Below, in pieces: positions 1 through 63,370 of a stretch of DNA of 64,000 nt (positions are counted from its first letter, which is position 1; the number at the start of each line of letters is the position of its first letter). A model generated the notes under the pieces. It was not told the origin of the DNA, made no database searches, and saw nothing but the letters and a program-made list of their open reading frames with translations. Both the position numbers and the translations under genes were made by a program. Source of the DNA: Nemertoderma westbladi (lineage: Eukaryota > Animalia > Xenacoelomorpha); NCBI GenBank assembly GCA_032718475.1, contig JAUCBJ010009124.1, positions 17,422 through 81,421 on the forward strand, read 5' to 3'.

Positions 1-3000
1 CTGGGGTAGGTTGGTACAAACCGAGGTAGGTTGGTACAAACCGAGGTAGGTTGGTACAAACCGTGTAGGTTGGTACAAACGGAGGTAGGTTGGTACAAAC
101 CGAGGTAGGTTGTTACTAACCGAGGTAGGTTGGTACACACCGAGGTACGTTGGTACAAACCGAGGTAGGTTGGTACAAACCGAGGTAGGTTGGTATAAAC
201 TGGGGTAGGTTGGTACAAACCGAGGTAGGTTGGTATAAACTGGGGTAGGTTGGTACAAACCGAGGTAGGTTGTTACAAACTGAGGTAGGTTGGTACAAAC
301 CGAGGTAGGTTGTTACAAACTGAGGTAGGTTGGTACAAACCGAGGTAGGTTTGTACAAACCGAGGTAGGTTGGTACAAACCGAGGTAGGTTGTTACAAAC
401 CGAGGTAGGTTGGTACAAACCGTGTAGGTTGGTACAAACCGAGGTAGGTTGGTACAAACCGAGGTAGGTTGGTACAAACTGGGATAGGTTGGTACAAACT
501 GATTGTAGGTTGGTACAAACCGAGGTAGGTTGGTACAAACTGGGGTAGGTTTGTACAAACCGAGGTAGGTTGTTACAAACCGAGTAGGTTGGTACAAACC
601 GAGGTAGGTTTGTACAAACCGAGGTAGGTTGGTACAAACTGGGGTAGGTTGGTACAAACCGAGGTAGGTTGGTACAAACCGTGTAGGTTGGTACAAACCG
701 AGGTAGGTTGGTACAAACTGATTGTAGGTTGGTACAAACTGGGGTAGGTTGGTACAAACCGAGGTAGGTTGGTACAAACCGAGGTAGGTTGGTACAAACC
801 GAGGTAGGTTGGTACAAACCGAGGTAGGTTGGTACAAACCGAGGTAGGTTGGTACAAACCGAGGTAGGTTGGTACAAACCGAGGTAGGTTGGTACAAACT
901 GGGGTAGGTTGGTACAAACCGAGGTAGGTTGGTACAAACCGAGGTAGGTTGGTACAACCCGAGGTAGGTTAGTACAAACCGAGGTAGGTTGGTACAAACC
1001 GAGGTAGGTTGGTACAAACCGAGGTAGGTTGGTACAAACTGGGGTAGGTTGGTTCAAACTGGGGTAGGTTGGTACAAACCGAGGTAGGTTGGTACAAACC
1101 GAGTAGGTTGTTACAAACCGAGGTAGGTTGGTACAATCTGGGTTAGGTTGGTACAAACCGAGGTAGGTTGGTACAAACCGAGGTAGGTTGGTACAAACCG
1201 AGGTAGGTTGGTACAAACCGAGGTAGGTTGGTACAAACCGAGGTAGGTTGGTACAACCCGAGGTAGGTTAGTACAAACCGAGGTAGGTTGGTACAAACCG
1301 AGGTAGGTTGGTACAAACCGAGGTAGGTTGGTACAAACTGGGGTAGGTTGGTACAAACTGGGGTAGGTTGGTACAAACCGAGGTAGGTTGGTACAAACCG
1401 AGTAGGTTGTTACAAACCGAGGTAGGTTGGTACAATCTGGGGTAGGTTGGTACAAACCGAGGTAGGTTGGTACAAACCGAGGTAGGTTGGTACAAACCGA
1501 GGTAGGTTGGTACAAACCGAGGTAGGTTGGTACAAACCGAGGTAGGTTGGTACAAACTGGGGTAGGTTGGTACAAACCGAGGTAGGTTGGTACAAACCGA
1601 GGTAGGTTGGTACAAACCGAGGTAGGTTGGTACAACCCGAGGTAGGTTAGTACAAACCGAGGTAGTTTGGTACAAACCGAGGTAGGTTGGTACAAACCGA
1701 GGTAGGTTGGTACAAACCGAGGTAGGTTGGTACAAACCGAGGTAGGTTGTTACAAACCGAGTAGGTTGGTACAAACCGAGGTAGGTTTGTACAAACCGAG
1801 GTAGGTTGGTACAAACTGGTGTAGGTTGGTACAAACTGATTGTAGGTTGGTACAAACCGAGGTAGGTTGGTACAAACTGGGGTAGGTTTGTACAAACCGA
1901 GGTAGGTTGTTACAAACCGAGTAGGTTGGTACAAACCGAGGTAGGTTGGTACAAACTGAGGTAGGTTTGTACAAACCGAGGTAGGTTGGTACAAACCGAG
2001 GTAGGTTGGTACAAACCGTGTAGGTTGGTACAAACCGAGGTAGGTTGGTACAAACTGATTGTAGGTTGGTACAAACTGGGGTAGGTTGGTACAAACCGAG
2101 GTAGGTTGGTACAAACCGAGATAGGTTGGTACAAACTAAGGTAGGTTGGTACAAACCGAGGTAGGTTGGTACAAACCGAGTTAGGTTGTTACAAACCGAG
2201 TAGGTTGTTACAAACCGAGGTAGGTTGGTACAAACCGAGGTAGGTTGGTACAAACTGGGGTAGGTTGGTACAAACCGAGGTAGGTTGGTACAAACTGAGG
2301 TAGGTTGGTACAAACTGAGGTAGGTTTGTACAAACCGAGGTAGGTTGGTACAAACTGGGGTAGGTTGGTACAAACCGAGGTAGGTTGGTACAAACCGAGA
2401 TAGGTTTGTACAAACTGAGGTAGGTTTGTACAAACCGAGGTAGGTTGGTACAAACCGAGGTAGGTTGGTACAAACCGTGTAGGTTGGTACAAACCGAGGT
2501 AGGTTGGTACAAACTGATTGTAGGTTGGTACAAACTGGGGTAGGTTGGTACAAACCGAGGTAGGTTGGTACAAACCGAGATAGGTTGGTACAAACTAAGG
2601 TAGGTTGGTACAAACCGAGGTAGGTTGGTACAAACCGAGTTAGGTTGTTACAAACCGAGTAGGTTGTTACAAACCGAGGTAGGTTGGTACAAACCGAGGT
2701 AGGTTGGTACAAACTGGGGTAGGTTGGTACAAACCGAGGTAGGTTGGTACAAACTGAGGTAGGTTGGTACAAACTGAGGTAGGTTGGTATAAACCGAGGT
2801 AGGTTGATACAAACGGAGGTAGGTTGGTACAAACCGAGGTAGGCTGGTACAAACCGAGGTAGGTTGGTACAAACCGAGGTAGGTTGTTACAAACCGAGGT
2901 AGGTTGTTACAAACCGAGTAGGTTGTTACAAACCGAGTAGGTTGTTACAAACCGAGTAGGTTGGTATAAACCGAGGTAGGTTGGTACAAACCGAGGTAGG

Positions 3001-4675
3001 TTGGTACAAACTGGGGTAGGTTGGTACAAACCGAGGTAGGTTGGTACAAACCGAGGTAGGTTGGTACAAACCGTGTAGGTTGGTACAAACCGAGGTAGGT
3101 TGGTACAAACCGTGTAGGTTGGTACAAACCGAGGTAGGTTGGTACAAACTGAGGTAGGTTGGTACAAACCGAGGTAGGCTGGTACAAACCGAGGTAGGTT
3201 GGTATAAACCGAGGTAGGTTGGTACAAACCGAGGTAGGTTGGTACAAACTGGGGTAGGTTGGTATAAACCGAGGTAGGTTGGTACAAACCGAGGTAGGTT
3301 GGTACAAACCGTGTAGGTTGGTACAAACCGAGGTAGGTTGGTACAAACCGAGGTAGGTTGGTACAAACCGTGTAGGTTGGTACAAACCGTTTAGGTTGGT
3401 ACAAACCGAGGTAGGTTGGTACAAACCGAGGTAGGTTTGTACAAACCGAGGTAGGTTGGTATAAACTGGGGTAGGTTGGTACAAACTGAGGTAGGTTGGT
3501 ACAAACTGAGGTAGGTTGGTACAAACCGAGGTAGGTTGTTTCAAACTGAGGTAGGTTGGTACAAACCGTGTAGGTTGGTACAAACTGAGGTAGGTTGTTA
3601 CAAACCGAGGTAGGTTGGTACAAACCGAGGTAGGTTGTTACAAACCGAGGTAGGTTGGTACAAACCGAGGTAGGTTGGTACAAACCGAGGTAGGCTGGTA
3701 CAAACCGAGGTAGGTTGGTATAAACCGAGGTAGGTTGGTACAAACCGAGGTAGGTTGGTACAAACTGGGGTAGGTTGGTATAAACCGAGGTAGGTTGGTA
3801 CAAACCGAGGTAGGTTGGTACAAACCGTGTAGGTTGGTACAAACCGAGGTAGGTTGGTACAAACCGAGGTAGGTTGGTACAAACCGTGTAGGTTGGTACA
3901 AACCGTTTAGGTTGGTACAAACCGAGGTAGGTTGGTACAAACCGAGGTAGGTTTGTACAAACCGAGGTAGGTTGGTATAAACTGGGGTAGGTTGGTACAA
4001 ACTGAGGTAGGTTGGTACAAACCGAGGTAGGTTGGTATAAACCGAGGTAGGTTGGTACAAACCGAGGTAGGTTGGTACAAACTGGGGTAGGTTGGTATAA
4101 ACCGAGGTAGGTTGGTACAAACCGAGGTAGGTTGGTACAAACCGTGTAGGTTGGTACAAACCGAGGTAGGTTGGTACAAACCGAGGTAGGTTGGTACAAA
4201 CCGTGTAGGTTGGTACAAACCGTTTAGGTTGGTACAAACCGAGGTAGGTTGGTACAAACCGAGGTAGGTTTGTACAAACCGAGGTAGGTTGGTATAAACT
4301 GGGGTAGGTTGGTACAAACTGAGGTAGGTTGGTACAAACTGAGGTAGGTTGGTACAAACCGAGGTAGGTTGTTTCAAACTGAGGTAGGTTGGTACAAACC
4401 GTGTAGGTTGGTACAAACTGAGGTAGGTTGTTACAAACCGAGGTAGGTTGGTACAAACCGAGGTAGGTTGTTACAAACTGAGGTAGGTTGGTACAAACTG
4501 AGGTAGGTTGGTACAAACCGAGGTAGGTTGGTACAAACCGTGTAGGTTGGTACAAACTGAGGTAGGTTGTTACAAACCGAGGTAGGTTGGTACAAACCGA
4601 GGTAGGTTGTTACAAACCGAGGTAGGTTGGTACAAACCGAGGTAGGTTGGTACAAACCGAGGGTAGGTTGGTATA
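1..4675 (+). repeat. 20-bp tandem array (TGGTACAAACCGAGGTAGGT)n, ~235 copies, running off the left edge; lies in the last intron of the LAR-family PTP gene
   Basis: Unit read directly; 19-bp deletion variants and CTGGGG/CTGATT/CCGTG variants present; ends ~85 nt before the AG acceptor at 4758-4759. Confidence 0.97.
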
Positions 4676-4759: not shown

Positions 4760-4828
4760 GACCAATACGCGTTGTGTTATAAAGCGGCATTGGAATACGT
4801 TGGCAGTTACGATCAGTATTTATCCTAG
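4760..4828 (+). CDS. Lar: Last coding exon of a LAR/PTPRD/PTPRS-family receptor protein tyrosine phosphatase (end of D2 domain)
   Basis: tttgcag|GAC CAA TAC... translates DQYALCYKAALEYVGSYDQYLS*, matching the conserved LAR-family C-terminus (VQTE)DQYxxCYxAALEYLGSFDHY; followed by AT-rich 3'UTR-like sequence. Confidence 0.85.
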   Translation, partial: DQYALCYKAALEYVGSYDQYLS

Positions 4829-11543: not shown

Positions 11544-11597
11544 CAAATATGTTGTGTGACCCCTAGATCCCTTCCTATAAATGTATAATCCCAAAGG

Positions 11598-30800: not shown

Positions 30801-33800
30801 CGTAATCAGTCAGACTTTCAACCGGGAGGTCACCATTTCGATCGTAATCAGTCAGACTTTCAACCGGGAGGTCACCATTTCGATCGTAATCAGTCAGACT
30901 TTCAACCGGGAGGTCACCATTTCGACCGTAATCAGTCAGACTTTCAACCGGGAGGTCACCATTTCGACCGTAATCAGTCAGACTTTCAACCGGGAGGTCA
31001 CCATTTCGACCGTAATCAGTCAGACTTTCAACCGGGAGGTCACCATTTCGACCGTAATCAGTCAGACTTTCAACCGGGAGGTCACCATTTCGACCGTAAT
31101 CAGTCAGACTTTCAACCGGGAGGTCACCATTTCGACCGTAATCAGTCAGACTTTCAACCGGGAGGTCACCATTTCGACCGTAATCAGTCAGACTTTCAAC
31201 CGGGAGGTCACCATTTCGACCGTAATCAGTCAGACTTTCAACCGGGAGGTCACCATTTCGACCGTAATCAGTCAGACTTTCAACCGGGAGGTCACCATTT
31301 CGACCGTAATCAGTCAGACTTTCAACCGGGAGGTCACCATTTCGACCGTAATCAGTCAGACTTTCAACCGGGAGGTCACCATTTCGACCGTAATCAGTCA
31401 GACTTTCAACCGGGAGGTCACCATTTCGACCGTAATCAGTCAGACTTTCAACCGGGAGGTCACCATTTCGACCGTAATCAGTCAGACTTTCAACCGGGAG
31501 GTCACCATTTCGACCGTAATCAGTCAGACTTTCAACCGGGAGGTCACCATTTCGACCGTAATCAGTCAGACTTTCAACCGGGAGGTCACCATTTCGACCG
31601 TAATCAGTCAGACTTTCAACCGGGAGGTCACCATTTCGACCGTAATCAGTCAGACTTTCAACCGGGAGGTCACCATTTCGACCGTAATCAGTCAGACTTT
31701 CAACCGGGAGGTCACCATTTCGACCGTAATCAGTCAGACTTTCAACCGGGAGGTCACCATTTCGACCGTAATCAGTCAGACTTTCAACCGGGAGGTCACC
31801 ATTTCGACCGTAATCAGTCAGACTTTCAACCGGGAGGTCACCATTTCGACCGTAATCAGTCAGACTTTCAACCGGGAGGTCACCATTTCGACCGTAATCA
31901 GTCAGACTTTCAACCGGGAGGTCACCATTTCGACCGTAATCAGTCAGACTTTCAACCGGGAGGTCACCATTTCGACCGTAATCAGTCAGACTTTCAACCG
32001 GGAGGTCACCATTTCGACCGTAATCAGTCAGACTTTCAACCGGGAGGTCACCATTTCGACCGTAATCAGTCAGACTTTCAACCGGGAGGTCACCATTTCG
32101 ACCGTAATCAGTCAGACTTTCAACCGGGAGGTCACCATTTCGACCGTAATCAGTCAGACTTTCAACCGGGAGGTCACCATTTCGACCGTAATCAGTCAGA
32201 CTTTCAACCGGGAGGTCACCATTTCGACCGTAATCAGTCAGACTTTCAACCGGGAGGTCACCATTTCGACCGTAATCAGTCAGACTTTCAACCGGGAGGT
32301 CACCATTTCGACCGTAATCAGTCAGACTTTCAACCGGGAGGTCACCATTTCGACCGTAATCAGTCAGACTTTCAACCGGGAGGTCACCATTTCGACCGTA
32401 ATCAGTCAGACTTTCAACCGGGAGGTCACCATTTCGACCGTAATCAGTCAGACTTTCAACCGGGAGGTCACCATTTCGACCGTAATCAGTCAGACTTTCA
32501 ACCGGGAGGTCACCATTTCGACCGTAATCAGTCAGACTTTCAACCGGGAGGTCACCATTTCGACCGTAATCAGTCAGACTTTCAACCGGGAGGTCACCAT
32601 TTCGACCGTAATCAGTCAGACTTTCAACCGGGAGGTCACCATTTCGACCGTAATCAGTCAGACTTTCAACCGGGAGGTCACCATTTCGACCGTAATCAGT
32701 CAGACTTTCAACCGGGAGGTCACCATTTCGACCGTAATCAGTCAGACTTTCAACCGGGAGGTCACCATTTCGACCGTAATCAGTCAGACTTTCAACCGGG
32801 AGGTCACCATTTCGACCGTAATCAGTCAGACTTTCAACCGGGAGGTCACCATTTCGACCGTAATCAGTCAGACTTTCAACCGGGAGGTCACCATTTCGAC
32901 CGTAATCAGTCAGACTTTCAACCGGGAGGTCACCATTTCGACCGTAATCAGTCAGACTTTCAACCGGGAGGTCACCATTTCGACCGTAATCAGTCAGACT
33001 TTCAACCGGGAGGTCACCATTTCGACCGTAATCAGTCAGACTTTCAACCGGGAGGTCACCATTTCGACCGTAATCAGTCAGACTTTCAACCGGGAGGTCA
33101 CCATTTCGACCGTAATCAGTCAGACTTTCAACCGGGAGGTCACCATTTCGACCGTAATCAGTCAGACTTTCAACCGGGAGGTCACCATTTCGACCGTAAT
33201 CAGTCAGACTTTCAACCGGGAGGTCACCATTTCGACCGTAATCAGTCAGACTTTCAACCGGGAGGTCACCATTTCGACCGTAATCAGTCAGACTTTCAAC
33301 CGGGAGGTCACCATTTCGACCGTAATCAGTCAGACTTTCAACCGGGAGGTCACCATTTCGACCGTAATCAGTCAGACTTTCAACCGGGAGGTCACCATTT
33401 CGACCGTAATCAGTCAGACTTTCAACCGGGAGGTCACCATTTCGACCGTAATCAGTCAGACTTTCAACCGGGAGGTCACCATTTCGACCGTAATCAGTCA
33501 GACTTTCAACCGGGAGGTCACCATTTCGACCGTAATCAGTCAGACTTTCAACCGGGAGGTCACCATTTCGACCGTAATCAGTCAGACTTTCAACCGGGAG
33601 GTCACCATTTCGACCGTAATCAGTCAGACTTTCAACCGGGAGGTCACCATTTCGACCGTAATCAGTCAGACTTTCAACCGGGAGGTCACCATTTCGACCG
33701 TAATCAGTCAGACTTTCAACCGGGAGGTCACCATTTCGACCGTAATCAGTCAGACTTTCAACCGGGAGGTCACCATTTCGACCGTAATCAGTCAGACTTT

Positions 33801-36800
33801 CAACCGGGAGGTCACCATTTCGACCGTAATCAGTCAGACTTTCAACCGGGAGGTCACCATTTCGACCGTAATCAGTCAGACTTTCAACCGGGAGGTCACC
33901 ATTTCGACCGTAATCAGTCAGACTTTCAACCGGGAGGTCACCATTTCGACCGTAATCAGTCAGACTTTCAACCGGGAGGTCACCATTTCGACCGTAATCA
34001 GTCAGACTTTCAACCGGGAGGTCACCATTTCGACCGTAATCAGTCAGACTTTCAACCGGGAGGTCACCATTTCGACCGTAATCAGTCAGACTTTCAACCG
34101 GGAGGTCACCATTTCGACCGTAATCAGTCAGACTTTCAACCGGGAGGTCACCATTTCGACCGTAATCAGTCAGACTTTCAACCGGGAGGTCACCATTTCG
34201 ACCGTAATCAGTCAGACTTTCAACCGGGAGGTCACCATTTCGACCGTAATCAGTCAGACTTTCAACCGGGAGGTCACCATTTCGACCGTAATCAGTCAGA
34301 CTTTCAACCGGGAGGTCACCATTTCGACCGTAATCAGTCAGACTTTCAACCGGGAGGTCACCATTTCGACCGTAATCAGTCAGACTTTCAACCGGGAGGT
34401 CACCATTTCGACCGTAATCAGTCAGACTTTCAACCGGGAGGTCACCATTTCGACCGTAATCAGTCAGACTTTCAACCGGGAGGTCACCATTTCGACCGTA
34501 ATCAGTCAGACTTTCAACCGGGAGGTCACCATTTCGACCGTAATCAGTCAGACTTTCAACCGGGAGGTCACCATTTCGACCGTAATCAGTCAGACTTTCA
34601 ACCGGGAGGTCACCATTTCGACCGTAATCAGTCAGACTTTCAACCGGGAGGTCACCATTTCGACCGTAATCAGTCAGACTTTCAACCGGGAGGTCACCAT
34701 TTCGACCGTAATCAGTCAGACTTTCAACCGGGAGGTCACCATTTCGACCGTAATCAGTCAGACTTTCAACCGGGAGGTCACCATTTCGACCGTAATCAGT
34801 CAGACTTTCAACCGGGAGGTCACCATTTCGACCGTAATCAGTCAGACTTTCAACCGGGAGGTCACCATTTCGACCGTAATCAGTCAGACTTTCAACCGGG
34901 AGGTCACCATTTCGACCGTAATCAGTCAGACTTTCAACCGGGAGGTCACCATTTCGACCGTAATCAGTCAGACTTTCAACCGGGAGGTCACCATTTCGAC
35001 CGTAATCAGTCAGACTTTCAACCGGGAGGTCACCATTTCGACCGTAATCAGTCAGACTTTCAACCGGGAGGTCACCATTTCGACCGTAATCAGTCAGACT
35101 TTCAACCGGGAGGTCACCATTTCGACCGTAATCAGTCAGACTTTCAACCGGGAGGTCACCATTTCGACCGTAATCAGTCAGACTTTCAACCGGGAGGTCA
35201 CCATTTCGACCGTAATCAGTCAGACTTTCAACCGGGAGGTCACCATTTCGACCGTAATCAGTCAGACTTTCAACCGGGAGGTCACCATTTCGACCGTAAT
35301 CAGTCAGACTTTCAACCGGGAGGTCACCATTTCGACCGTAATCAGTCAGACTTTCAACCGGGAGGTCACCATTTCGACCGTAATCAGTCAGACTTTCAAC
35401 CGGGAGGTCACCATTTCGACCGTAATCAGTCAGACTTTCAACCGGGAGGTCACCATTTCGACCGTAATCAGTCAGACTTTCAACCGGGAGGTCACCATTT
35501 CGACCGTAATCAGTCAGACTTTCAACCGGGAGGTCACCATTTCGACCGTAATCAGTCAGACTTTCAACCGGGAGGTCACCATTTCGACCGTAATCAGTCA
35601 GACTTTCAACCGGGAGGTCACCATTTCGACCGTAATCAGTCAGACTTTCAACCGGGAGGTCACCATTTCGACCGTAATCAGTCAGACTTTCAACCGGGAG
35701 GTCACCATTTCGACCGTAATCAGTCAGACTTTCAACCGGGAGGTCACCATTTCGACCGTAATCAGTCAGACTTTCAACCGGGAGGTCACCATTTCGACCG
35801 TAATCAGTCAGACTTTCAACCGGGAGGTCACCATTTCGACCGTAATCAGTCAGACTTTCAACCGGGAGGTCACCATTTCGACCGTAATCAGTCAGACTTT
35901 CAACCGGGAGGTCACCATTTCGACCGTAATCAGTCAGACTTTCAACCGGGAGGTCACCATTTCGACCGTAATCAGTCAGACTTTCAACCGGGAGGTCACC
36001 ATTTCGACCGTAATCAGTCAGACTTTCAACCGGGAGGTCACCATTTCGACCGTAATCAGTCAGACTTTCAACCGGGAGGTCACCATTTCGACCGTAATCA
36101 GTCAGACTTTCAACCGGGAGGTCACCATTTCGATCGTAATCAGTCAGACTTTCAACCGGGAGGTCACCATTTCGACCGTAATCAGTCAGACTTTCAACCG
36201 GGAGGTCACCATTTCGACCGTAATCAGTCAGACTTTCAACCGGGAGGTCACCATTTCGACCGTAATCAGTCAGACTTTCAACCGGGAGGTCACCATTTCG
36301 ACCGTAATCAGTCAGACTTTCAACCGGGAGGTCACCATTTCTATCGTAATCAGTCAGACTTTCAACCGGGAGGTCACCATTTCGACCGTAATCAGTCAGA
36401 CTTTCAACCGGGAGGTCACCATTTCGACCGTAATCAGTCAGACTTTCAACCGGGAGGTCACCATTTCGACCGTAATCAGTCAGACTTTCAACCGGGAGGT
36501 CACCATTTCGACCGTAATCAGTCAGACTTTCAACCGGGAGGTCACCATTTCGACCGTAATCAGTCAGACTTTCAACCGGGAGGTCACCATTTCGACCGTA
36601 ATCAGTCAGACTTTCAACCGGGAGGTCACCATTTCGACCGTAATCAGTCAGACTTTCAACCGGGAGGTCACCATTTCGACCGTAATCAGTCAGACTTTCA
36701 ACCGGGAGGTCACCATTTCGACTGTAATCAGTCAGACTTTCAACCGGGAGGTCACCATTTCGACCGTAATCAGTCAGACTTTCAACCGGGAGGTCACCAT

Positions 36801-37395
36801 TTCGACCGTAATCAGTCAGACTTTCAACCGGGAGGTCACCATTTCGACCGTAATCAGTCAGACTTTCAACCGGGAGGTCACCATTTCGACCGTAATCAGT
36901 CAGACTTTCAACCGGGAGGTCACCATTTTGACCGTAATCAGTCAGACTTTCAACCGGGAGGTCACCATTTCGACCGTAATCAGTCAGACTTTCAACCGGG
37001 AGGTCACCATTTCGACCGTAATCAGTCAGACTTTCAACCGGGAGGTCACCATTTCGACCGTAATCAGTCAGACTTTCAACCGGGAGGTCACCATTTCGAC
37101 CGTAATCAGTCAGACTTTCAACCGGGAGGTCACCATTTCGACCGTAATCAGTCAGACTTTCAACCGGGAGGTCACCATTTCGACCGTAATCAGTCAGACT
37201 TTCAACCGGGAGGTCACCATTTCGACCGTAATCAGTCAGACTTTCAACCGGGAGGTCACCATTTCGACCGTAATCAGTCAGACTTTCAACCGGGAGGTCA
37301 CCATTTCGACCGTAATCAGTCAGACTTTCAACCGGGAGGTCACCATTTCGACCGTAATCAGTCAGACTTTCAACCGGGAGGTCACCATTTCGATC
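21829..37395. repeat. 42-bp intronic satellite, at least ~365 copies, nearly homogeneous; contains a 100-N assembly gap (28882-28981)
   Basis: Unit CTTTCAACCGGGAGGTCACCATTTCGACCGTAATCAGTCAGA read directly. Confidence 0.98.
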
Positions 37396-40140: not shown

Positions 40141-41575
40141 CAGTAACTACTATTACGACAGTACTAGGTCGAGCGAGCTCGGACGGTGGAAATTAGATCC
40201 TTCCAGGCTTCCCGATTCTCCATAGTTGTCGCAATTTCGTTTCTCCTAAGTTCAGTATCCCTTTCAAGTTAATCTATATATGTTATGGCCGGTCGTCCAC
40301 GACTACGCTTTCCATGAGTTGGTTGCCAGAGAAGTAGATCTGGTATGACCTCGTCTTTACTTCGCCAGCAGCGCCCACTGAATCTTAATCTGCGTTCACG
40401 GAGGGTGGTTGATTCAGGTGGTATTGTACCATTAAGCTCGGCGTTTGTCATGTGTTGTCTCCAGCTGATGTTTAGGGCTGCCCTTAGTAGTCTTGTGTAG
40501 CAACCATCAATTCGTTGTTCAAGTGATTTCGTTCCTCTGTGGCTCGAAAGAACTTAGTCTCAATGTTCCTGGTGCATCTGCTAAGATATTAGAGAGCAGG
40601 GCGATGTCATCCGCAAAGTCGGTGTCTGTGACTGTAATTGCCGGATATCTACTTACTACTTCTGCGTTCTTGAGGTGTAAATCACAGATCTTCACCCTTT
40701 GTGGCCGTCCTCATCGCGTAATCCAATACAATTACAAATAGTAATGGTGCTAATGTGTCACCTTGCAATACGCCATCCAGGATTGAGAAATACTCAGTTT
40801 CACCATCTGGTGAGAGTACCTGAGTTTCTGTGTCAAAATATAACAACCCAATGCCAGTGACAGTTACTTCTGGTATTCCATAAGCTCTTAGGATTTCAAG
40901 CATTTTACCTCTATGGATGGAGTCGAATGCCTTCTTGAAGCCCATAAAAGTCATGACTGCAGTGAGATTCTTTGACTTAATTCCTTCAATCAGTCTCCGT
41001 AGTGCAAGTATCTGAGCTATTGTTGATCTACTTGGTCGAAATCCGTTTTGGCTCTTACGCAGTAGTTTCTCTATGTGAGGCCTAATGCTATATAGAATCA
41101 TTTTATTGTATATTTTGGCAGCTACCACAAGCAGACAGATCCGGCAATAGTTTGTTGGTATACCGAAGTCTCCTTTCTTTTTGGGGAGAGGCTAGGCTTA
41201 CTTTTAGTTCAAATATTTGATCCGACTTTTAGTCCAAATTGGTGATGGCTTTTTCCCCTTTCAGCATCCGGTTGCAAACATCCAATAATTGTCTGTTTAG
41301 CACTCCTGTTTTCCATACCTCTGCAGGAATTTCATCTAATCAACTCGCTTTATGATTGTACAGTACATGCTTTTATTTAATGATTCTTTGGAGTTCGGCT
41401 GGTGTGAAGTCCCCTGTTTCTATAGGTGGTGTCTTGTCTTGTAATTGCTTCAATTTTATCCTGTATGTACTTTTCCTGGCTGATGTTGTAGGCCAATTTA
41501 AGATCTTCCTTAGCTTTCTCAACCTTGTTAATGTTTTCTGGTATTTGTTGTTAGAAGAAATATCTTTCGGGTGTT
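40141..41575 (-). mobile_element. Degenerate RTE-clade LINE (RT fragment with internal deletion, plus 3' end)
   Basis: QNGFRPSRST, FKKAFDSIHR, GVLQGDTLAP, TDFADDIALL, LLWQPTHGKRSRGRP; frameshifts and stops; TAG-rich tail. Confidence 0.9.
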
Positions 41576-41604
41576 ACAAGTAATCTCAGAGTTCATACAG
41601 ATGT

Positions 41605-42432
41605 ACTACTACTAGGATCGGCATGCTGCATTGCAGCTGCATTTTTAAGAATGCTGTGCCGGCTTATCGACAAAATTGCACCGCCACAACTCCCTATCAC
41701 CCATGACATTTGCTAGATCATCCGCATCTTCAAGGCCAGTGTCCTTTAAGATGCGTCTCAAGAAAGTCATGGGCTGTCCACCATGCTTATTCACTCCATG
41801 AGGCTGCCAAAGTACAAGATTATGCACTGGTTGGTCCTCACGGCGAAAGCAATGTCCTGCAAAGCGGAGGCGATTTTGTTCTAGTGTCAAGCTTGGGGGA
41901 ACCAATGAGACACCTACAATGTTATATAGTGTCTGGTTGGAGATATGTGCATTGTACTTGACACAATGAACCCGGCGTAGCATTCTTGGGAATGTGCCAT
42001 CCAGAGATTTGGTGTCCTCAGTAGTTAGAGCCCAGCATGGACTCCCATAGAGGAGTACTGGAACTACTGCTGCTCTAAATAATCGGACCTTAAGTTTCCG
42101 ATTAATTCTCGGTGACTTCCAAATTCTGGAAAGCCCATTCAAGGCTGCCCATGCCTTTCCCTTACGTATTCGAAGGTCCTCACCTGACTTCCGGATCCAT
42201 GATCCCAGGTAACAGAAGTCATCCACATGCTCAAGCATACCATCTTTTGAGCTTATGCTCATCCGATCAGAGACTTGCTGAGGACTTTTAAAGTTAACTG
42301 TCAAAATTTTGGTCTTTCTGGAGTTAATAAAAAGACCAACACGTTCTAATAAGCTGAGGAGCCGTTGGGCTCCCTCTAGTGATTCTGAGAGTACTCCTAA
42401 GTCATCAGCAAAGTCTAGAGATGTGGTAAATC
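41605..42432 (-). mobile_element. 5'-truncated RTE-clade LINE of a second family, with TSD
   Basis: LDFADDL, DDFCYLGSWI, VLLYGSPCW, RLRFAGHCFRR, LVLWQP; (TAG)n tail; ACAGATGT duplicated at 41597-41604 and 42433-42440. Confidence 0.9.
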
Positions 42433-53669: not shown

Positions 53670-54480
53670 AACAAAACCTTCTGGACAACGAGATCAAGAA
53701 ATCAGTTGAATCCTTGAAGATCCATGACGACAATACCATCACTCCTTGTACATCGAAGCAAAAGAGTCTGATTACCACCTAGCTCGCGATCATGGTGCCG
53801 CAGCACCTGGGTCAGGTGACTGGCTGAAAGCCATCCCCTCGGGATCATTGGGTCAGCGTCTTTCTGACAAACAACTTCGGATCACTACTTCTGTCCGACT
53901 AGGAGCTAATGTCCACGTTCAGCACAGTTGTACTTGCGGATCTACTTCTGATTCACTGGGTCTCCACTCTTTAGTTTGCAAACAATTGCCTGGCAGACAA
54001 GCAAGGCACCGTCAGGCTCTGAGGGAGGCGATACGATCAGCGGATATACCCAAATACTCTTGAGCCTGTTATCCCTTTCCGACAATATGCGTCCCGAAAG
54101 ATCGACTTTAGTCCCTTGGGCCTCTGGCAAACCGGCTTTCTGTGATTTTACATGTTCGCATCGGATGGCCCTAACCGCGAGCAATCACCACTAATTCAGG
54201 CCCTACAGTAGAGCCACCTCCAAGGAACATCTGAAGGAAGCCAAGTATGCTGAACTTGCCGCGTCCAATTCTGCCACCCTTTTCCCTGTCTCAAATGAGA
54301 CATTGTTAGGCGGATGGAATGAGCGAAGCAAGCTTTCATTAGGAATATCGGCCACAGAATCGAGCTGTCACTTGGCAACCCTAGCTCGACCTCTTTCCTA
54401 CGTCAACGTCTCGGAATCTTGTTCCAGATAGGGAAACTCCATAAGCGTATCAGTTTCAAACAGCCTCTCCCGAGAAGCTC
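53670..54480 (+). mobile_element. Degenerate CRE-clade (RLE-type) non-LTR retrotransposon 3' fragment
   Basis: GSGDWLKAIPS..LR....RLG, CTCG..LHSLVC zinc knuckle, RH, RPERSTLVPWASGK..DFTC, RQRLGILFQ; frameshifted. Confidence 0.75.
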
Positions 54481-54926
54481 TAGCTATGGACTAGTACATG
54501 ATTTAAATGTGATGTTAAAGCGTGATTCTAACTTTTAACTTGGCCTACATCCATTATTAAATTCGATTCATGATTTTAATTAATTTGTGTTATCGTGCTT
54601 TTAACTTACGTACTTTTACTTTTTAAAATTAAATTTGTGATTTTAACTAATTAAGATTTTACATGATTGAATTAATTAATTAATTAAAAATGATATAATT
54701 TATTAATAGAGTTGGTGCGGCATAGGTGGGACTGTTTTTGTGGCACAAATTCAGTGCAAACTATTTATAAAAAAAATTTCAAATTAATGCTTCAAAGTAA
54801 AAGGGCCCCAAAACAATCACAAAGATTAAAGACCCAAAATATAATACAATAATGAGAGGAGCTATCAGTTTGTTAACAATAATTACAAACACACAACAAA
54901 CGCATCTAATAAAGTAGTTTATTTAC

Positions 54927-55058
54927 CTGCTGTATTGGAATAGGAATGGGTCCGAGTTTCACGGTATTAGAAGTTCCTTTACCAGCGATTGTTAGTGAAT
55001 AATAAGCGCAGGCGACACCGAACTCCAAAATAACGAACGCTAAACAGCAGGTGAGCCT
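54927..55058 (-). CDS. PKD1-like exon 3 (TM2)
   Basis: ttacag|AGG...CAG|gtaaat; RLTCCLAFVILEFGVACAYYSL...KLGPIPIPIQQ. Confidence 0.92.
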
Positions 55059-55184
55059 CTGTAAAGTTAAGTTATACCGTCGGGAAATAAACGAAAATAA
55101 ATTGAAAAATAACATCCAAGGAAGGCCAAATAAAAGGGCAGATAAAAACAAATAATAATATATGTCACAACTATTTCCTTATAG

Positions 55185-58100
55185 ACGAGTAAAGGACTTG
55201 TGATTGGTCATTCTTCTTACCTGTACAAGAGTAACTTGTGATTGGTCAACCTTCTTAATTAACTGTACACGAGTAACTTGTGATTGGTCAACCTTCTTAA
55301 TTAACTGTACACGAGTAACTTGTGATTGGTCATCTTTCTTAACTGTACAAGAGCAACTTGTGATTGGTCAACCTTCTTAATTAACTGTACACGAGTAACT
55401 TGTGATTGGTCAACCTTCTTAATTAACTGTACACGAGTAACTTGTGATTGGTCATCTTTCTTAACTGTACAAGAGTAACTTGTGATTGGTCAACCTTCTT
55501 AATTAACTGTACACGAGTAACTTGTGATTGGTCATCTTTCTTAACTGTACAAGAGTAACTTGTGATTGGTCAACCTTCTTAATTAACTGTACACGAGTAA
55601 CTTGTGATTGGTCAACCTTCTTAATTAACTGTACACGAGTAACTTGTGATTGGTCATCTTTCTTAACTGTACAAGAGTAACTTGTGATTGGTCAACCTTC
55701 TTAATTAACTGTACACGAGTAACTTGTGATTGGTCATCTTTCTTAACTGTACAAGAGTAACTTGTGATTGGTCAACCTTCTTAATTAACTGTACACGAGT
55801 AACTTGTGATTGGTCAACCTTCTTAATTAACTGTACACGAGTAACTTGTGATTGGTCATCTTTCTTAACTGTACAAGAGTAACTTGTGATTGGTCAACCT
55901 TCTTAATTAACTGTACACGAGTAACTTGTGATTGGTCATCTTTCTTAACTGTACAAGAGCAACTTGTGATTGGTCAACCTTCTTAATTAACTGTACACGA
56001 GTAACTTGTGATTGGTCAACCTTCTTAATTAACTGTACACGAGTAACTTGTGATTGGTCATCTTTCTTAACTGTACAAGAGTAACTTGTGATTGGTCAAC
56101 CTTCTTAATTAACTGTACACGAGTAACTTGTGATTGGTCAACCTTCTTAATTAACTGTACAAGAGTAACTTGTGATTGGTCAACCTTCTTAATTAACTGT
56201 ACACGAGTAACTTGTGATTGGTCATCTTTCTTAACTGTACAAGAGTAACTTGTGATTGGTCAACCTTCTTAATTAACTGTACACGAGTAACTTGTGATTG
56301 GTCAACCTTCTTAATTAACTGTACACGAGTAACTTGTGATTGGTCATCTTTCTTAACTGTACAAGAGTAACTTGTGATTGGTCAACCTTCTTAATTAACT
56401 GTACACGAGTAACTTGTGATTGGTCATCTTTCTTAACTGTACAAGAGTAACTTGTGATTGGTCAACCTTCTTAATTAACTGTACACGAGTAACTTGTGAT
56501 TGGTCAACCTTCTTAATTAACTGTACACGAGTAACTTGTGATTGGTCATCTTTCTTAACTGTACAAGAGTAACTTGTGATTGGTCAACCTTCTTAATTAA
56601 CTGTACACGAGTAACTTGTGATTGGTCATCTTTCTTAACTGTACAAGAGCAACTTGTGATTGGTCAACCTTCTTAATTAACTGTACACGAGTAACTTGTG
56701 ATTGGTCAACCTTCTTAATTAACTGTACACGAGTAACTTGTGATTGGTCATCTTTCTTAACTGTACAAGAGTAACTTGTGATTGGTCAACCTTCTTAATT
56801 AACTGTACACGAGTAACTTGTGATTGGTCAACCTTCTTAATTAACTGTACAAGAGTAACTTGTGATTGGTCAACCTTCTTAATTAACTGTACACGAGTAA
56901 CTTGTGATTGGTCAACCTTCTTAATTAACTGTACACGAGTAACTTGTGATTGGTCATCTTTCTTAACTGTACAAGAGCAACTTGTGATTGGTCAACCTTC
57001 TTAATTAACTGTACACTAGTAACTTGTGATTGGTCATCTTTCTTAACTGTACAAGAGTAACTTGTGATTGGTCAACCTTCTTAATTAACTGTACACGAGT
57101 AACTTGTGATTGGTCAACCTTCTTAATTAACTGTACACGAGAAACTTGTGATTGGTCAACCTTCTTAATTAACTGTACAAGAGTAACTTGTGATTGGTCA
57201 ACCTTCTTAATTAACTGTACACGAGTAACTTGTGATTGGTCAACCTTCTTAATTAACTGTACACGAGTAACTTGTGATTGGTCAACCTTCTTAATTAACT
57301 GTACACGAGTAACTTGTGATTGGTCATCTTTCTTAACTGTACAAGAGTAACTTGTGATTGGTCAACCTTCTTAATTAACTGTACACGAGTAACTTGTGAT
57401 TGGTCAACCTTCTTAATTAACTGTACACGAGTAACTTGTGATTGGTCATCTTTCTTAACTGTACAAGAGCAACTTGTGATTGGTCAACCTTCTTAATTAA
57501 CTGTACACGAGTAACTTGTGATTGGTCAACCTTCTTAATTAACTGTACACGAGTAACTTGTGATTGGTCATCTTTCTTAACTGTACAAGAGCAACTTGTG
57601 ATTGGTCAACCTTCTTAATTAACTGTACACTAGTAACTTGTGATTGGTCATCTTTCTTAACTGTACAATAGTAACTTGTGATTGGTCAACCTTCTTAATT
57701 AACTGTACACGAGTAACTTGTGATTGGTCAACCTTCTTAATTAACTGTACACGAGTAACTTGTGATTGGTCAACCTTCTTAATTAACTGTACACGAGTAA
57801 CTTGTGATTGGTCAACCTTCTTAATTAACTGTACACGAGTAACTTGTGATTGGTCATCTTTCTTAACTGTACAAGAGCAACTTGTGATTGGTCAACCTTC
57901 TTAATTAACTGTACACTAGTAACTTGTGATTGGTCATCTTTCTTAACTGTACAAGAGTAACTTGTGATTGGTCAACCTTCTTAATTAACTGTACACGAGT
58001 AACTTGTGATTGGTCAACCTTATATTAATTAACTGTACACGAGTAACTTGTGATTGGTCAACCTTCTTAATTAACTGTACACGAGTAACTTGTGATTGGT

Positions 58101-60763
58101 CAACCTTCTTAATTAACTGTACACGAGTAACTTGTGATTGGTCAACCTTCTTAATTAACTGTACACGAGTAACTTGTGATTGGTCATCTTTCTTAACTGT
58201 ACAAGAGTAACTTGTGATTGGTCAACCTTCTTAATTAACTGTACACGAGTAACTTGTGATTGGTCATCTTTCTTAACTGTACAAGAGCAACTTGTGATTG
58301 GTCAACCTTCTTAATTAACTGTACACTAGTAACTTGTGATTGGTCATCTTTCTTAACTGTACAAGAGTAACTTGTGATTGGTCAACCTTCTTAATTAACT
58401 GTACACGAGTAACTTGTGATTGGTCATCTTTCTTAACTGTACAAGAGCAACTTGTGATTGGTCAACCTTCTTAATTAACTGTACACGAGTAACTTGTGAT
58501 TGGTCAACCTTCTTAATTAACTGTACACGAGTAACTTGTGATTGGTCATCTTTCTTAACTGTACAAGAGTAACTTGTGATTGGTCAACCTTCTTAATTAA
58601 CTGTACACGAGTAACTTGTGATTGGTCATCTTTCTTAACTGTACAAGAGCAACTTGTGATTGGTCAACCTTCTTAATTAACTGTACACGAGTAACTTGTG
58701 ATTGGTCAACCTTCTTAATTAACTGTACACGAGTAACTTGTGATTGGTCAACCTTCTTAATTAACTGTACACGAGTAACTTGTGATTGGTCATCTTTCTT
58801 AACTGTACAAGAGTAACTTGTGATTGGTCAACCTTCTTAATTAACTGTACACGAGTAACTTGTGATTGGTCATCTTTCTTAACTGTACAAGAGCAACTTG
58901 TGATTGGTCAACCTTCTTAATTAACTGTACACGAGTAACTTGTGATTGGTCAACCTTCTTAATTAACTGTACACGAGTAACTTGTGATTGGTCATCTTTC
59001 TTAACTGTACAAGAGCAACTTGTGATTGGTCAACCTTCTTAATTAACTGTACACGAGTAACTTGTGATTGGTCAACCTTCTTAATTAACTGTACACGAGT
59101 AACTTGTGATTGGTCATCTTTCTTAACTGTACAAGAGCAACTTGTGATTGGTCAACCTTCTTAATTAACTGTACACTAGTAACTTGTGATTGGTCAACCT
59201 TCTTAATTAACTGTACACGAGTAACTTGTGATTGGTCAACCTTCTTAATTAACTGTACACGAGTAACTTGTGATTGGTCATCTTTCTTAACTGTACAAGA
59301 GTAACTTGTGATTGGTCAACCTTCTTAATTAACTGTACACGAGTAACTTGTGATTGGTCATCTTTCTTAACTGTACAAGAGCAACTTGTGATTGGTCAAC
59401 CTTCTTAATTAACTGTACACGAGTAACTTGTGATTGGTCAACCTTCTTAATTAACTGTACACGAGTAACTTGTGATTGGTCAACCTTCTTAATTAACTGT
59501 ACACGAGTAACTTGTGATTGGTCAACCTTCTTAATTAACTGTACACTAGTAACTTGTGATTGGTCATCTTTCTTAACTGTACAAGAGTAACTTGTGATTG
59601 GTCATTCTTCTTAATTAACTGTACACGAGTAACTTGTGATTGGTCAACCTTCTTAATTAACTGTACACTAGTAACTTGTGATTGGTCATCTTTCTTAACT
59701 GTACAAGAGTAACTTGTGATTGGTCATTCTTCTTAATTAACTGTACACGAGTAACTTGTGATTGGTCAACCTTCTTAATTAACTGTACACGAGTAACTTG
59801 TGATTGGTCAACCTTCTTAATTAACTGTACACGAGTAACTTGTGATTGGTCATCTTTCTTAACTGTACAAGAGTAACTTGTGATTGGTCAACCTTCTTAA
59901 TTAACTGTACACGAGTAACTTGTGATTGGTCATCTTTCTTAACTGTACAAGAGCAACTTGTGATTGGTCAACCTTCTTAATTAACTGTACACGAGTAACT
60001 TGTGATTGGTCAACCTTCTTAATTAACTGTACAAGAGTAACTTGTGATTGGTCAACCTTATATTAATTAACTGTACACGAGTAACTTGTGATTGGTCAAC
60101 CTTCTTAATTAACTGTACACTAGTAACTTGTGATTGGTCATCTTTCTTAACTGTACAAGAGTAACTTGTGATTGGTCAACCTTCTTAATTAACTGTACAC
60201 GAGTAACTTGTGATTGGTCATCTTTCTTAACTGTACAAGAGCAACTTGTGATTGGTCAACCTTCTTAATTAACTGTACACGAGTAACTTGTGATTGGTCA
60301 ACCTTCTTAATTAACTGTACACGAGTAACTTGTGATTGGTCATCTTTCTTAACTGTACAAGAGTAACTTGTGATTGGTCAACCTTCTTAATTAACTGTAC
60401 ACGAGTAACTTGTGATTGGTCATCTTTCTTAACTGTACAAGAGCAACTTGTGATTGGTCAACCTTCTTAATTAACTGTACACGAGTAACTTGTGATTGGT
60501 CAACCTTCTTAATTAACTGTACACGAGTAACTTGTGATTGGTCATCTTTCTTAACTGTACAAGAGCAACTTGTGATTGGTCAACCTTCTTAATTAACTGT
60601 ACACGAGTAACTTGTGATTGGTCAACCTTCTTAATTAACTGTACAAGAGTAACTTGTGATTGGTCAACCTTATATTAATTAACTGTACACGAGTAACTTG
60701 TGATTGGTCATCTTTCTTACCTGAACGCGAGTAAATGGACTTGTGATTGGTCATCTTTCATAC
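55185..60763 (-). repeat. Mixed 42/38-bp intronic satellite (~135 units) derived from the upstream exon end and donor site
   Basis: Sense-strand units CCAATCACAAGTTACTCGTGTACAGTTAATTAAGAAGGTTGA and CCAATCACAAGTTACTCTTGTACAGTTAAGAAAGATGA. Confidence 0.97.
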
Positions 60764-60913
60764 CTGAACGCGAGTAAATGGACTTGTGATTGGCCGCAGG
60801 AACACGGAAAGGTAAATATGCTCATCGGAAATCATATCATGCGACTTGTTGTCAAAAAGCATATTAAACCCGGTTTGGTCTACAGAGGAAGCAACGGCTA
60901 AACGGCGGGAAAT
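60764..60913 (-). CDS. PKD1-like exon 2 seen (linker after PLAT)
   Basis: ttttag|ATT...CAG|gtatga; ISRRLAVASSVDQTGFNMLFDNKSHDMISDEHIYLSVFLRPITSPFTRVQ. Confidence 0.92.
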
Positions 60914-61519
60914 CTAAAATGGAGGAAAATAAATAATTTTTGTTACATTTATATCAACTTAACAGCGAATTACTCGTAACGCTGCAAAGTACTACTTTGC
61001 AGCGTTGCGGTCTATATGACGGAACGCTGCAAAGTAATCAATAACCTGGAAACAACTTCAATTACCGTATTCCAGAATGTATTATTTCCATTTATATTAA
61101 TGGTTGCTGCTTTATTATCCAGTTTGCAATGACCGGGACTAGCTACTATATGTAAATAATTGTTTAACGTGTACTGTAATCCATTATGTTAAAACTTCCA
61201 ATAGACGATACTTACCAAAGAAAATGGCGACAGTGTTCAGTAAAACTGAACGGACACAGACGATGACTAAGTTTGCTTCAGTCGACTATATAGTCAAGAT
61301 GGATTAATGATTTATAACATTCATGCATGAGTTAACTTCCACCCCCGCAATAAACTTTAATTGGATTTAAATGTATAATTAATACTGTGTACCAGTGTAC
61401 CTGTTAATAAATTTCACTTATATTCGATGATATATAGTACATGATTAAAATGTGTAAATGAGTATCCATAAAATCCTTTCTTCACACACCGAACGCTGAT
61501 AAGTTGACAAAATGTTGCC

Positions 61520-62215
61520 ATAATACAGTCCGCGACATGTTCCGCGACAACCTCGCGCTGCGATACGGCCTCACTCCGCCAGGCCTCCCGGCGAAGTGCG
61601 AGGGGTGTGGGGAGCCGTTTACGACAACCCACGCCCTGAACTGCAATTCGGGGGGCGTGATAATAAGGCGGCACGATGGGGTACGTGAGGTCTTTGGGGA
61701 CCTCATTACCTCTGCATTTGGGGGCGCATGCGTCCAGCGCGAGGTTACCCTGGCATCCGGTTACCTGGACAGAAGGGGCCGCGAGGTGAGGGGAGTTAGG
61801 GTGGATCTCCTGGCGAGGGGAGTCTGGACCGAGCAGAGGGTGGCGTCTTTCGATATTGCGATCGTTAACGCTGACGCCCCCTCATATGCTCACCTGCCCT
61901 TGGACTCTGTCCTCCAACAGAGAGTCCAAGCCAAGAAGGTGCACTACACCGCGGCTGTGCGAAGATAAGAAGGCTCTCCTTCACCCCCCCTTGTCGGAAC
62001 CACCGTCTGGGTGTGGTGCAAGGAGACTGATATCTTCATCAGCCACATCGCTGAGACCCTAGTGGCTCGGCGGCAGGGGATGCGGGAACGCGGCCCAGCC
62101 TGCGTTCTCGGGGGAGTTCGGAGGCGGCTGCAGTTCGCGCACCTCCGCTCAAACTCCCTTTGTCTGCGTGGTGGCCGGCGACCGTGGAGGGCGCTGGGCT
62201 TTGGGGATGGTGCGG
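61520..62215 (+). mobile_element. CRE-like (RLE-type) non-LTR retrotransposon 3' fragment, second lineage
   Basis: FRDNLALRYG, CEGCG..HALNC..GG..RHD, RVDLLARGVW, FDIAIVNADAPSY, KKVHY, RRRLQFAHLRSNSLCLRG; GC-rich island ending in TA repeats. Confidence 0.8.
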
Positions 62216-62422
62216 GTATATATACTTACATATACTTTTTTATTATTAACAACATAAAATATAATATTTAGAGAAAATTGATTGATTTTTAATTGTTACT
62301 GAGCGGTACCGGTTATCAAATAGTCAAGTAGTTGAAATTAAATTGAATTGATATTAAAGGATGTTATTTCTATTAATACATATCAAATTAAATATAATAA
62401 TGTTAGTATTTAATTATCATAC

Positions 62423-62588
62423 CTCACAATCGTCTCTATCAAAAGCCAACCACCTGTTACATATAAACACGAATTTATTCCCGGTTTGTATATCTCGAAT
62501 CGATATAAAGTTTAAGTACCAACTCTTGGAGTACCCATCCCCAGAATTATCGTGCCAGATGTTTAAAGCCTTCAAGGGGCCCAGATGT
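62423..62588 (-). CDS. PKD1-like exon 1 seen (C-terminal half of PLAT/LH2 domain)
   Basis: ttttag|A CAT...GAG|gtatga; HLGPLKALNIWHDNSGDGYSKSWYLNFISIRDIQTGNKFVFICNRWLAFDRDDCE. Confidence 0.95.
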
Positions 62589-62692
62589 CTAAAATATTAT
62601 AAATAACTGAATATTATAACGCTGTGGCAGTAACAACAAACTTTTTTTTCAAAAATAATATAGAAAATAACAACAGAGAGCATATAAGAGTG

Positions 62693-62803
62693 AGAAAAAA
62701 TAGAAAATATAGAAAAAATAGAAAATATAGAAAAAATAGAAAATATAGAAAAAATAGAAAATATAGAAAAAATAGAAAATATAGAAAAAATAGAAAATAT
62801 AGA
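62693..62803. repeat. 18-bp low-complexity repeat (AGAAAAAATAGAAAATAT)n
   Basis: About 6 copies read directly. Confidence 0.9.
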
Positions 62804-62941: not shown

Positions 62942-63152
62942 CACTACTACTACTACTACTAGGTCGAGCGAACTCGGACAGTGGAAATGAGATCCTTCCA
63001 GGCTTCCCGATTCTCCATAGTTGTCGCAATTTCGTTTCTCCCAAGTTCAGTATCCCTTTCAAGTTGATCTATATATGTTATGGCCGGTCGTCCACGACTA
63101 CGCTTTCCATGAGTTGGTTGCCAGAAAAGTAGATCTGGTATGACCTCGTCTG
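62942..63152 (-). mobile_element. Short 3' end of an RTE LINE of the same family as 40141-41575
   Basis: Near-identical to 40164-40355; DEVIPDLLFWQPTHGKRSRGRP...VRVRST*; (TAG)n tail. Confidence 0.9.
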
Positions 63153-63370
63153 ACCTCATGGGTGCGCCTCGGAGTCATCAGAGAGGAGCCCAGAAGGACG
63201 CAAGCGTAGACAGGCCAAGGGAGCGGAGAAAGTAACACAACAACTCAATCGCCCAGCTGGTCGTTTATGTTTACTGGAAAGAGACCGAAAACTGTCCGGA
63301 AACTATGGAAGGCAAGATACTCTTCCTACGACCTCTTCCCTAATCCGACAAATATCTAGGGACTCCATAA

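Follow-up and report, generated by a model that had tools for sequence, protein, structure and literature searches.

A minisatellite in an intron of a PKD1-like (polycystin-1 family) gene of Nemertoderma westbladi is built from copies of the end of the preceding exon together with its splice donor, and the donor is dead in all of its internal units. Within the 64,000 nt of contig JAUCBJ010009124.1 (assembly GCA_032718475.1) analyzed here, referred to as the window, the array runs from 60793 to 55186 on the minus strand and can be split into 138 unit starts. A chance repeat is ruled out by its TRF score of 8544. Most probably, a neutral, local minisatellite arose from the PKD1-like exon end and donor, and the unit that founded its interior happened to be donor-dead. 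The array presumably has no function. Repeats of this type are already known (amphioxus mirages, human F7 and ABCA7 VNTRs), and the array described here is a large, cleanly readable example with its source exon, edge relics and a spliced transcript.

Host gene and intron

An upstream exon of the host gene (62423..62588, minus strand) encodes a PLAT domain (Pfam PLAT, E 6e-9) and matches a spliced contig of X4 with 0 differences. This contig of 4062 nt is taken to be transcript-derived because introns are skipped, a retrocopy being possible; it stems from sample S3, a different sample that may or may not carry the array. The source exon (60764..60913, minus strand, 150 nt) ends in ...RPITSPFTRVQ, is 44-52% identical to its homologues and corresponds to positions 1518-1667 of the X4 contig. 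It is followed by an intron of 5705 nt (60763-55059, minus strand) and by an exon of 132 nt (RLTCC...PIPIQQ; 54927..55058, minus strand; X4 contig positions 1665-1799, including a 3-nt CAG overlap). The non-repeat remainder of the intron measures 127 nt (55059..55185, minus strand) and contains the acceptor in use, as defined by the X4 junction. An earlier note on this DNA described the growth of an intron of about 160 nt to 5705 nt. The present length is correct, but the smaller figure is the 162 nt from the donor of the unit termed L to the acceptor; the ancestral intron was probably about 140-162 nt long. Birth of the intron by tandem AG|GT duplication (the Rogers model) was rejected, as the next exon starts with AGG CTC, unlike the intron start, and the acceptor sits within 127 nt of unrelated sequence.

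Organization of the array

The seed of the array consists of the last 30 nt of the source exon and the first 13 nt of the intron. This unit, H (60751..60793, minus strand), carries the donor in use, CAG|GTATGA, with 7/9 matches to U1. The adjoining unit I (60708..60750, minus strand) is identical to H at 42 of 43 positions, in agreement with the near-exact 43-nt repeat reported earlier, and its exon-derived part matches the coding exon end at 30/30 nt. Unit I contains a live decoy donor, CAG|GTAAGA, with 8/9 U1 matches; splicing there would bring in an in-frame stop located just past the native donor.

The 134 internal units (55246..60707, minus strand) measure 42 bp (88 units), 38 bp (43) or 44 bp (3). 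The earlier note had given 38 bp, or 42 bp through an extra TTAA; both lengths occur, but 42 bp is the majority form, and two further substitutions set it apart from the 38-bp unit. The variants are interspersed, and a block of 17 units occurs repeatedly. Four changes are common to every internal unit: the substitutions -7 C>T, -4 T>A and +1 G>T, and a deletion of 5 nt. Counting the monomer junctions upheld the G>T change at +1 proposed in the earlier note, since all 134 units read CAG|TT and none reads CAG|GT.

Beyond the source unit H there are 136 copies, of which only I and L have GT. Unit L (55208..55245, minus strand) combines a derived left half, with the 5-nt deletion and substitutions, with a live GT (CAG|GTAAGA); its acceptor-like YAG directly abuts the GT at 55221|55220, the layout of a ratchet point. 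The array ends with fragment M (55186..55207, minus strand), 22 nt of ancestral exon-end type with a 1-nt deletion. The interior is thus homogenized, with 134 related units, while the edge units I, L and M diverge. Of the ancestral-type units that had been reported at both edges, only the upstream one, I, is ancestral throughout; L at the other edge carries the derived deletion and substitutions along with its GT. L may be a recombinant because the ancestral G at -8 is retained in the 42-bp units and lost from L and the 38-bp units. A putative fourth degenerate unit after M was discarded, as 1544 of 2000 shuffles scored equally well.

Origin of the repeat unit

The exon end gave rise to the array rather than vice versa, because the motif encoded there is conserved in homologues: R-P-x-x-x-x-F-T-R-x-Q is invariant in all seven aligned sequences, and human polycystin-1 carries RPPRSRFTRIQR at the corresponding place. 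The earlier assignment of the array to a conserved exon end, FTRVQR, is therefore supported. The full HMMER search gave 8 matches, one of which (P0001, eight short repeated matches) was omitted from the alignment; neither a word-based search for homologues of the 50-aa exon, which covered 11 candidates, nor a single-exon PDB search returned a match. A set of 13 related loci, with 11 distinct exon sequences at 40-44% identity, consists of distant relatives and not of orthologues; in 12 of them FTRxQ is not followed by an intron, and at locus L013 an intron lies 2 nt beyond that position.

Short-read contigs were compared over the two stretches 60700-62700 and 54870-55290. Array words reach a depth of 1158 in run X1, against 29.3 for flanking DNA, and of 1477 against 37.4 in run X3, and this high depth in both runs rules out an assembly artefact. 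One X3 contig of depth 19 crosses the H-I junction, and unit L is spanned by an X3 contig with 0 differences; no X1 contig was found over 55196-55229. No array-free allele occurs among all 7 X3 records, all 3 X1 records and the X2 matches listed. It is most improbable that the array represents an assembly artefact or a dispersed satellite with a mere resemblance to the exon end. The array depth, at about half of the window-based expectation, would speak for it: array words occur at approximately 40x single copy in X1 and X3, where this array alone predicts 76x, contig depth being a rough measure. This deficit is compatible with shorter arrays or a single carrier haplotype, and it leaves no excess for a monomer present at many loci, the finding that the earlier note had named as refuting its claim. 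The 30/30 nt identity between coding exon end and unit I, the conservation of the encoded motif, the depth without excess in two samples and the absence of any further monomer copy in the window outside the array largely refute the dispersed or artefactual origin. An exact monomer scan of metagenome contigs, a set from which the organism may be absent, gave 0 matches.

Splicing across the array

The X4 contig splices 60764 to 55058, joining the native donor and the usual acceptor. Regular use of the authentic donor was seen in one contig, from one sample, and rare forms drop out of contigs. The H junction was the only one observed in X4, and no X4 contig was found over 60700-60763 or 55065-55290. 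Transcripts using the donor of unit I could be hidden by the premature stop. Concealment of this decoy by RNA structure was not supported (z +1.75).

The layout of unit L (TACAG|GTAAGA) would also permit recursive removal of the intron, with L as a zero-length-exon ratchet point, so that 5543 nt, comprising the entire array, leave first with re-formation of a donor, and 162 nt thereafter. The donor half of L is strong, no other unit at the far end of the array is live, and AG|GT sites within tandem repeats of human UBC are used as dual sites. Against this, any copied CAG|GT junction has the YAG|GT layout by construction, and the survival of an edge unit is expected without function. Furthermore, another AG lies 14 nt upstream of that of L, in a zone where one is also found for 3 of 15 candidate native acceptors; the 134 internal units present near-identical acceptor-like sequence earlier; and 5.7 kb is not long here, as another intron of the gene has a 15.5-kb array. 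No splicing intermediate was observed among the contigs, which would not reveal one. Recursive removal at L is hence very unlikely. An extended version, in which copying of CAG|GT yields a recursive site for free and selection killed the interior donors and kept that of L, appears just as doubtful. If it were true, a recursive splice site could be seen emerging from a minisatellite at L, and a ratchet function of L would show how such sites arise.

Loss of the donor in the internal units

The 134 dead donors likely reflect a founder unit that already carried the G>T change together with three other changes. In this scenario, a 43-bp tandem duplication would have given rise to a few ancestral-type units, of which I and M would be relics. 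One inner unit may then have acquired the 5-nt deletion and three substitutions, including +1 G>T, and this donor-dead unit would have expanded via unequal exchange or slippage, replacing the interior, while the edge units would have escaped homogenization. The spliceosome would likely pick the most upstream donor, as in human F7, and the array would leave with the intron. The +1 change is just one of the four shared by all 134 units; I, the closest of the decoys, has an intact GT and is a better U1 match than the native donor; and X4 shows the H junction alone, despite this live and stronger decoy. By analogy, edge units outside homogenization, as described for mirages, would also fit.

Selection would equally leave 134/134 units dead at the invariant +1 base. 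It was therefore considered whether live units, being dual YAG|GT sites that create pseudo-exons and stronger decoys, were selected against, so that only the G>T unit could pass a hundred copies. The unit ends in CAG, and its live copies are both acceptor-like and donor-like, unlike the GAG|GT of an array in a phosphatase (PTP) gene of the same window; L may represent an intermediate, G>T being the last change before expansion. In line with such a filter, the donor is dead in every internal unit and the interior is devoid of any credible donor: its best GT context has neither G at -1 nor G at +5, one of which is present in each of 13 candidate native donors. The copied ancestral donor has 8/9 U1 matches compared to 7 for the native one, and decoy donors are used in ABCA7, CBS and 6-16. 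However, this is a single event, and the chance that the shared changes touch the GT is 0.15 for the three substitutions and 0.28 when the deletion is added. Moreover, I and L are live, which leaves in place both the nearest decoy and a pseudo-exon that might end at L, and no corresponding X4 contig was found; nor can the order of changes be fixed from the units. Large donor-bearing arrays exist as well (GT in 224/234 units of the PTP array; up to about 427 units, not necessarily all with GT, in ABCA7). Taken together, a selective filter seems rather unlikely, and the earlier note's conclusion that amplification was open only to a donor-dead unit is not supported as stated, given one change among four, a living nearest decoy and donor-bearing arrays elsewhere.

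The PTP array (5..4673, plus strand) has exon-end/donor units of 20 bp and occupies the final intron of a LAR-type tyrosine phosphatase gene, whose last exon (4760-4825) gives a PTPRF/LAR match with E 2e-5; the source exon of the array lies outside the window. Its donors are mostly intact, in keeping with the contrast drawn in the earlier note. Mutants at +1 (10/233) have not spread, because six other positions show variants more often (13-58/233). GAG is a poor splice acceptor end, and the PTP unit is thus an imperfect control for the filter. The special value of the locus lies in this pairing of a dead-donor, CAG-ended array with a live-donor, GAG-ended one. If CAG-ended arrays lose their donors genome-wide and others do not, this would directly demonstrate a filtering effect of splicing on which satellite variants can expand. 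Altogether, 57% of the window consists of six arrays with unrelated units; one was traced to a SINE-like dispersed repeat, and the 15.5-kb array of the PKD1-like gene has no donor-like unit.

Comparison with known systems

Mirages of amphioxus were reportedly first described by Canestro et al. in 2002. They are tandem copies of exon-intron boundaries, known from Adh3 and the globins BflGb6 and BflGb9, with units of 10-72 bp in Adh3 and 3-6 copies in BflGb6; they leave regular splicing unaffected, and their edges are excluded from homogenization (Ebner et al., 2010; PMC3087553). The array shares with mirages the head-to-tail boundary copies, a unit size in the Adh3 range, normal splicing, divergent edges and a first unit, H, that spans a real exon-intron boundary, as confirmed by the spliced contig. 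It differs in its 136 copies, compared to 3-6 in BflGb6, and in an interior derived from one donor-dead unit. Splice signals are found in “many, but not all” mirage units according to the passages available (PMC3087553), whereas GT is present in 2/136 copies here; because units without signal are permitted there, this is a difference of degree and not a defining failure. In titles and abstract openings, a partial coverage of the literature, no description of an array wholly swept by a donor-dead unit was found.

In the 37-bp VNTR of human F7 intron 7, the first of 5-9 units spans the exon-intron boundary, all donors are live, and a minigene test demonstrated use of only the most upstream one, even against stronger decoys (Borensztajn et al., 2006; PMC1557585, which also cites the 6-16, CBS, LMNB2 and PDGF cases). 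The boundary-spanning first unit and splicing from the most upstream donor recur in the present array, in which, unlike F7, just two of 136 copies are live decoys and the upstream preference is derived from one contig. Leaky splicing in 6-16, CBS and ABCA7 makes use of the nearest decoys (PMC1557585; PMC5954066). The 25-bp VNTR of human ABCA7 intron 18 comprises 12 to about 427 units, and as described it begins at the GT, with no exon bases; its second-unit donor leaks, and array length alters splicing (De Roeck et al., 2018; PMC5954066). Both are multi-kilobase arrays at a splice donor that enlarge the intron several-fold; exon bases are part of the unit here, and no effect of length or leakage was seen. 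Finally, dual-specific AG|GT sites, which are under-represented in human splice-site annotation, are used inside the coding tandem repeats of UBC (Duan et al., 2024; PMC10809524). The AG|GT layout is shared by H, I and L; unlike UBC, the array is intronic, its interior has lost the GT, and dual use would be hypothetical.

Array Structure and Origin

A single minus-strand gene of the polycystin-1 family occupies most of the window. Pfam matches were obtained for five of the seven exons scanned (PLAT, E 6e-9; Polycystin_dom, E 6e-18; PKD_channel, E 7e-9), and, in the PDB, a profile built from the source exon together with seven homologues matched only polycystin-1. The source exon (60913-60764, minus) ends in RPITSPFTRVQ and the next exon, beginning RLTCC, starts at 55058 on the same strand; these bounds give an intron length of 5705 nt. 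Decayed fragments that we take to be non-LTR retrotransposon-like are present in introns (about 53700-54500, 61530-62220, 40270-42430, and 62960-63300), with presumably reverse transcriptase-like reading frames at 40685-42430, and 60967-61515 is, judged by depth, a very high-copy dispersed repeat.

Cutting the array (60793-55186, minus) at a constant 11-mer yielded 138 unit starts. Source unit H (60793-60751) comprises the exon end and native donor, and the following copy I (60750-60708) is identical to it at 42/43 positions, with its donor intact. All 134 internal units (60707-55246) read CAG/TT at the copied junction, confirming the +1 G to T change described in the earlier note; they also share, relative to I, a 5-nt deletion, -7 C>T and -4 T>A. 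The proposed 38 and 42 bp units were both recovered (n = 43 and 88, interspersed), together with three of 44 bp, and a 17-unit block occurs twice. Beyond them lie unit L (55245-55208) and a 22-nt fragment, M (55207-55186). The claim that the edges keep ancestral-type units holds for the intact donors of I and L, the only 2 of 136 copies with GT, but L is otherwise of derived type, with the 5-nt deletion and substitutions.

The exon-end motif R40 P41 F46 T47 R48 Q50 is invariant in 7/7 homologues and also present in human polycystin-1. Therefore, the repeat derived from the exon and not the reverse, as previously claimed. Twelve of 13 distant loci have no intron at this position, and the remaining one carries a 392-nt intron 2 nt downstream, after CAG AG (L013:2150-2544), which forms a near-intron pair with that of the array gene; the array-bearing intron may thus be lineage-specific. 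Intron birth by the array's own duplication is excluded, as the start of the next exon is unlike that of the intron.

Short-Read Contigs and Splicing

Four runs of one species label (X1-X4), all as contigs, were compared with both array ends. Array-word depth was 1158 in X1 and 1477 in X3, two different samples, against flank depths of 29.3 and 37.4. The array is real, and this about 40-fold excess, compared with 76-fold predicted from the window, leaves no surplus indicating other loci; the arrays in these samples may be shorter or carried by one haplotype. Depth at the X3 H-I junction (19) is halved as well. These values, about half of what the window predicts (array words in X1 and X3, junction in X3), concern 55196-55290 and 60721-60793, and the X1 flank contig ends at 55195; heterozygosity or shorter alleles are possible causes.

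In X4, whose type is a guess in its record, which we treat as transcript-derived, and which comes from a further sample whose array genotype may differ, a single 4062-nt contig matches 62588-62423, 60913-60764, and 55061-54927 consecutively with 0 differences: splicing of the gene uses the first donor. At the acceptor, the unaligned end of this contig is the unique exon sequence that runs through H. No X4 contig covers I, L or the intron, and contigs lose rare forms; use of the I donor would immediately introduce a stop codon. At 54925-54968, contigs of a second PKD1-like gene, a paralogue, match the exon end in all four runs, differing at 6 positions over about 44 nt; it is apparently also spliced in X4.

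Other Arrays in the Window

The window contains six arrays whose units are unrelated to one another (20, 63, 43, 42, 22, and 38/42 bp); together they make up 57% of it. Local sequence appears to be readily amplified in this genome, making a neutral origin of the array likely. Two of the six start on a donor, above a rough target-size estimate (p 0.01-0.04; post hoc, junction number assumed). Four are alike in length: 5-4673 (4.7 kb, truncated where the window begins), 6266-11544 (5.3 kb), 13030-17974 (4.9 kb), and 55186-60763 (5.6 kb). The 42-bp array (21829-37393; 15.5 kb, 100-N gap at 28882-28981) comes from part of a SINE-like repeat found elsewhere in the window (about 20251-20282 and 20757-20789; 88-91% identity), whose tail continues at its right edge. 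The intronic 43-bp array (13030-17974, minus) does not derive from a neighboring exon; on the gene's sense strand its unit contains a donor-like AAG/GTAATC, present in 109 copies and located 16 nt downstream of a CAG, so each unit could conceivably hold a micro pseudo-exon.

The 20-bp array at 5-4673 (plus; at least 234 units) occupies the final intron of a gene for a LAR-type receptor phosphatase, upstream of the last exon (4760-4828, plus; LAR-type match, E 2e-5). Its unit encodes VQTE, which we take to precede DQY in LAR, followed by the donor; the source exon lies outside the window. Its donors do mostly stay intact, with GT in 224/234 units (192 with and 32 without G at -1). The ten +1 mutants are dispersed and occur less often than variants at six other sites in the unit.

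Amplification and Donor Loss

The array probably arose by a 43-bp duplication across the exon-intron junction, which would have given a few ancestral-type units; a derived inner unit would then have expanded and homogenized the interior, leaving the edges behind, while first-donor choice would remove the whole array with the intron. L could be an intermediate in which G>T was the last change. An ancestral base that it lost persists in 42-bp units, however, and either order of changes therefore requires one recombination or reversion. The boldest reading, that L is a ratchet point for recursive splicing, with removal of the intron in segments of 5543 and 162 nt, is highly improbable: such a layout results automatically from copying CAG/GT, and the present data contain no use of L in this role.

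The main rival to this history, selection against live donors, seems rather unlikely but has several points in its favor. Because of the CAG at the end of the unit, any live copy would be both an acceptor and a donor site, and dual sites of this kind are under-represented in human annotation (PMC10809524); U1 complementarity is 8/9 positions for the copied donor versus 7 for the native one; the invariant +1 position is mutated in 134/134 internal units; and the interior has no other credible donor. However, the donor was lost only once, and the chance that three substitutions within 38 bp hit GT is 0.15, or 0.28 counting the deletion. Leaking decoys in the human cases are the nearest ones (PMC1557585; PMC5954066), and the nearest decoy here, I, is alive. 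F7 splicing favors the donor lying furthest upstream, even when decoys are stronger or repeats are added (PMC1557585). The phosphatase array also keeps GT in most units, although it is not a perfect control, given the GAG at its unit end and its merely presumed splicing. The earlier suggestion that only a donor-dead variant was free to amplify is therefore unproven, and a selective requirement is more likely unnecessary.

Comparison With Known Boundary Repeats

Donor-side human cases include F7, 6-16, CBS, LMNB2, and PDGF (PMC1557585) and ABCA7 (PMC5954066). In the part of the literature searched, no description was found of an array taken over entirely by a unit with a dead donor. In amphioxus, exon-intron boundaries copied in tandem are called "mirages": splicing there is normal, interior units evolve in concert while edge units are excluded, and signals are missing from some units (PMC3087553). 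The PKD1-like array shows the defining features tested and belongs to this known class of boundary-copy repeats, differing in degree from mirages in that GT survives in so few of its copies.
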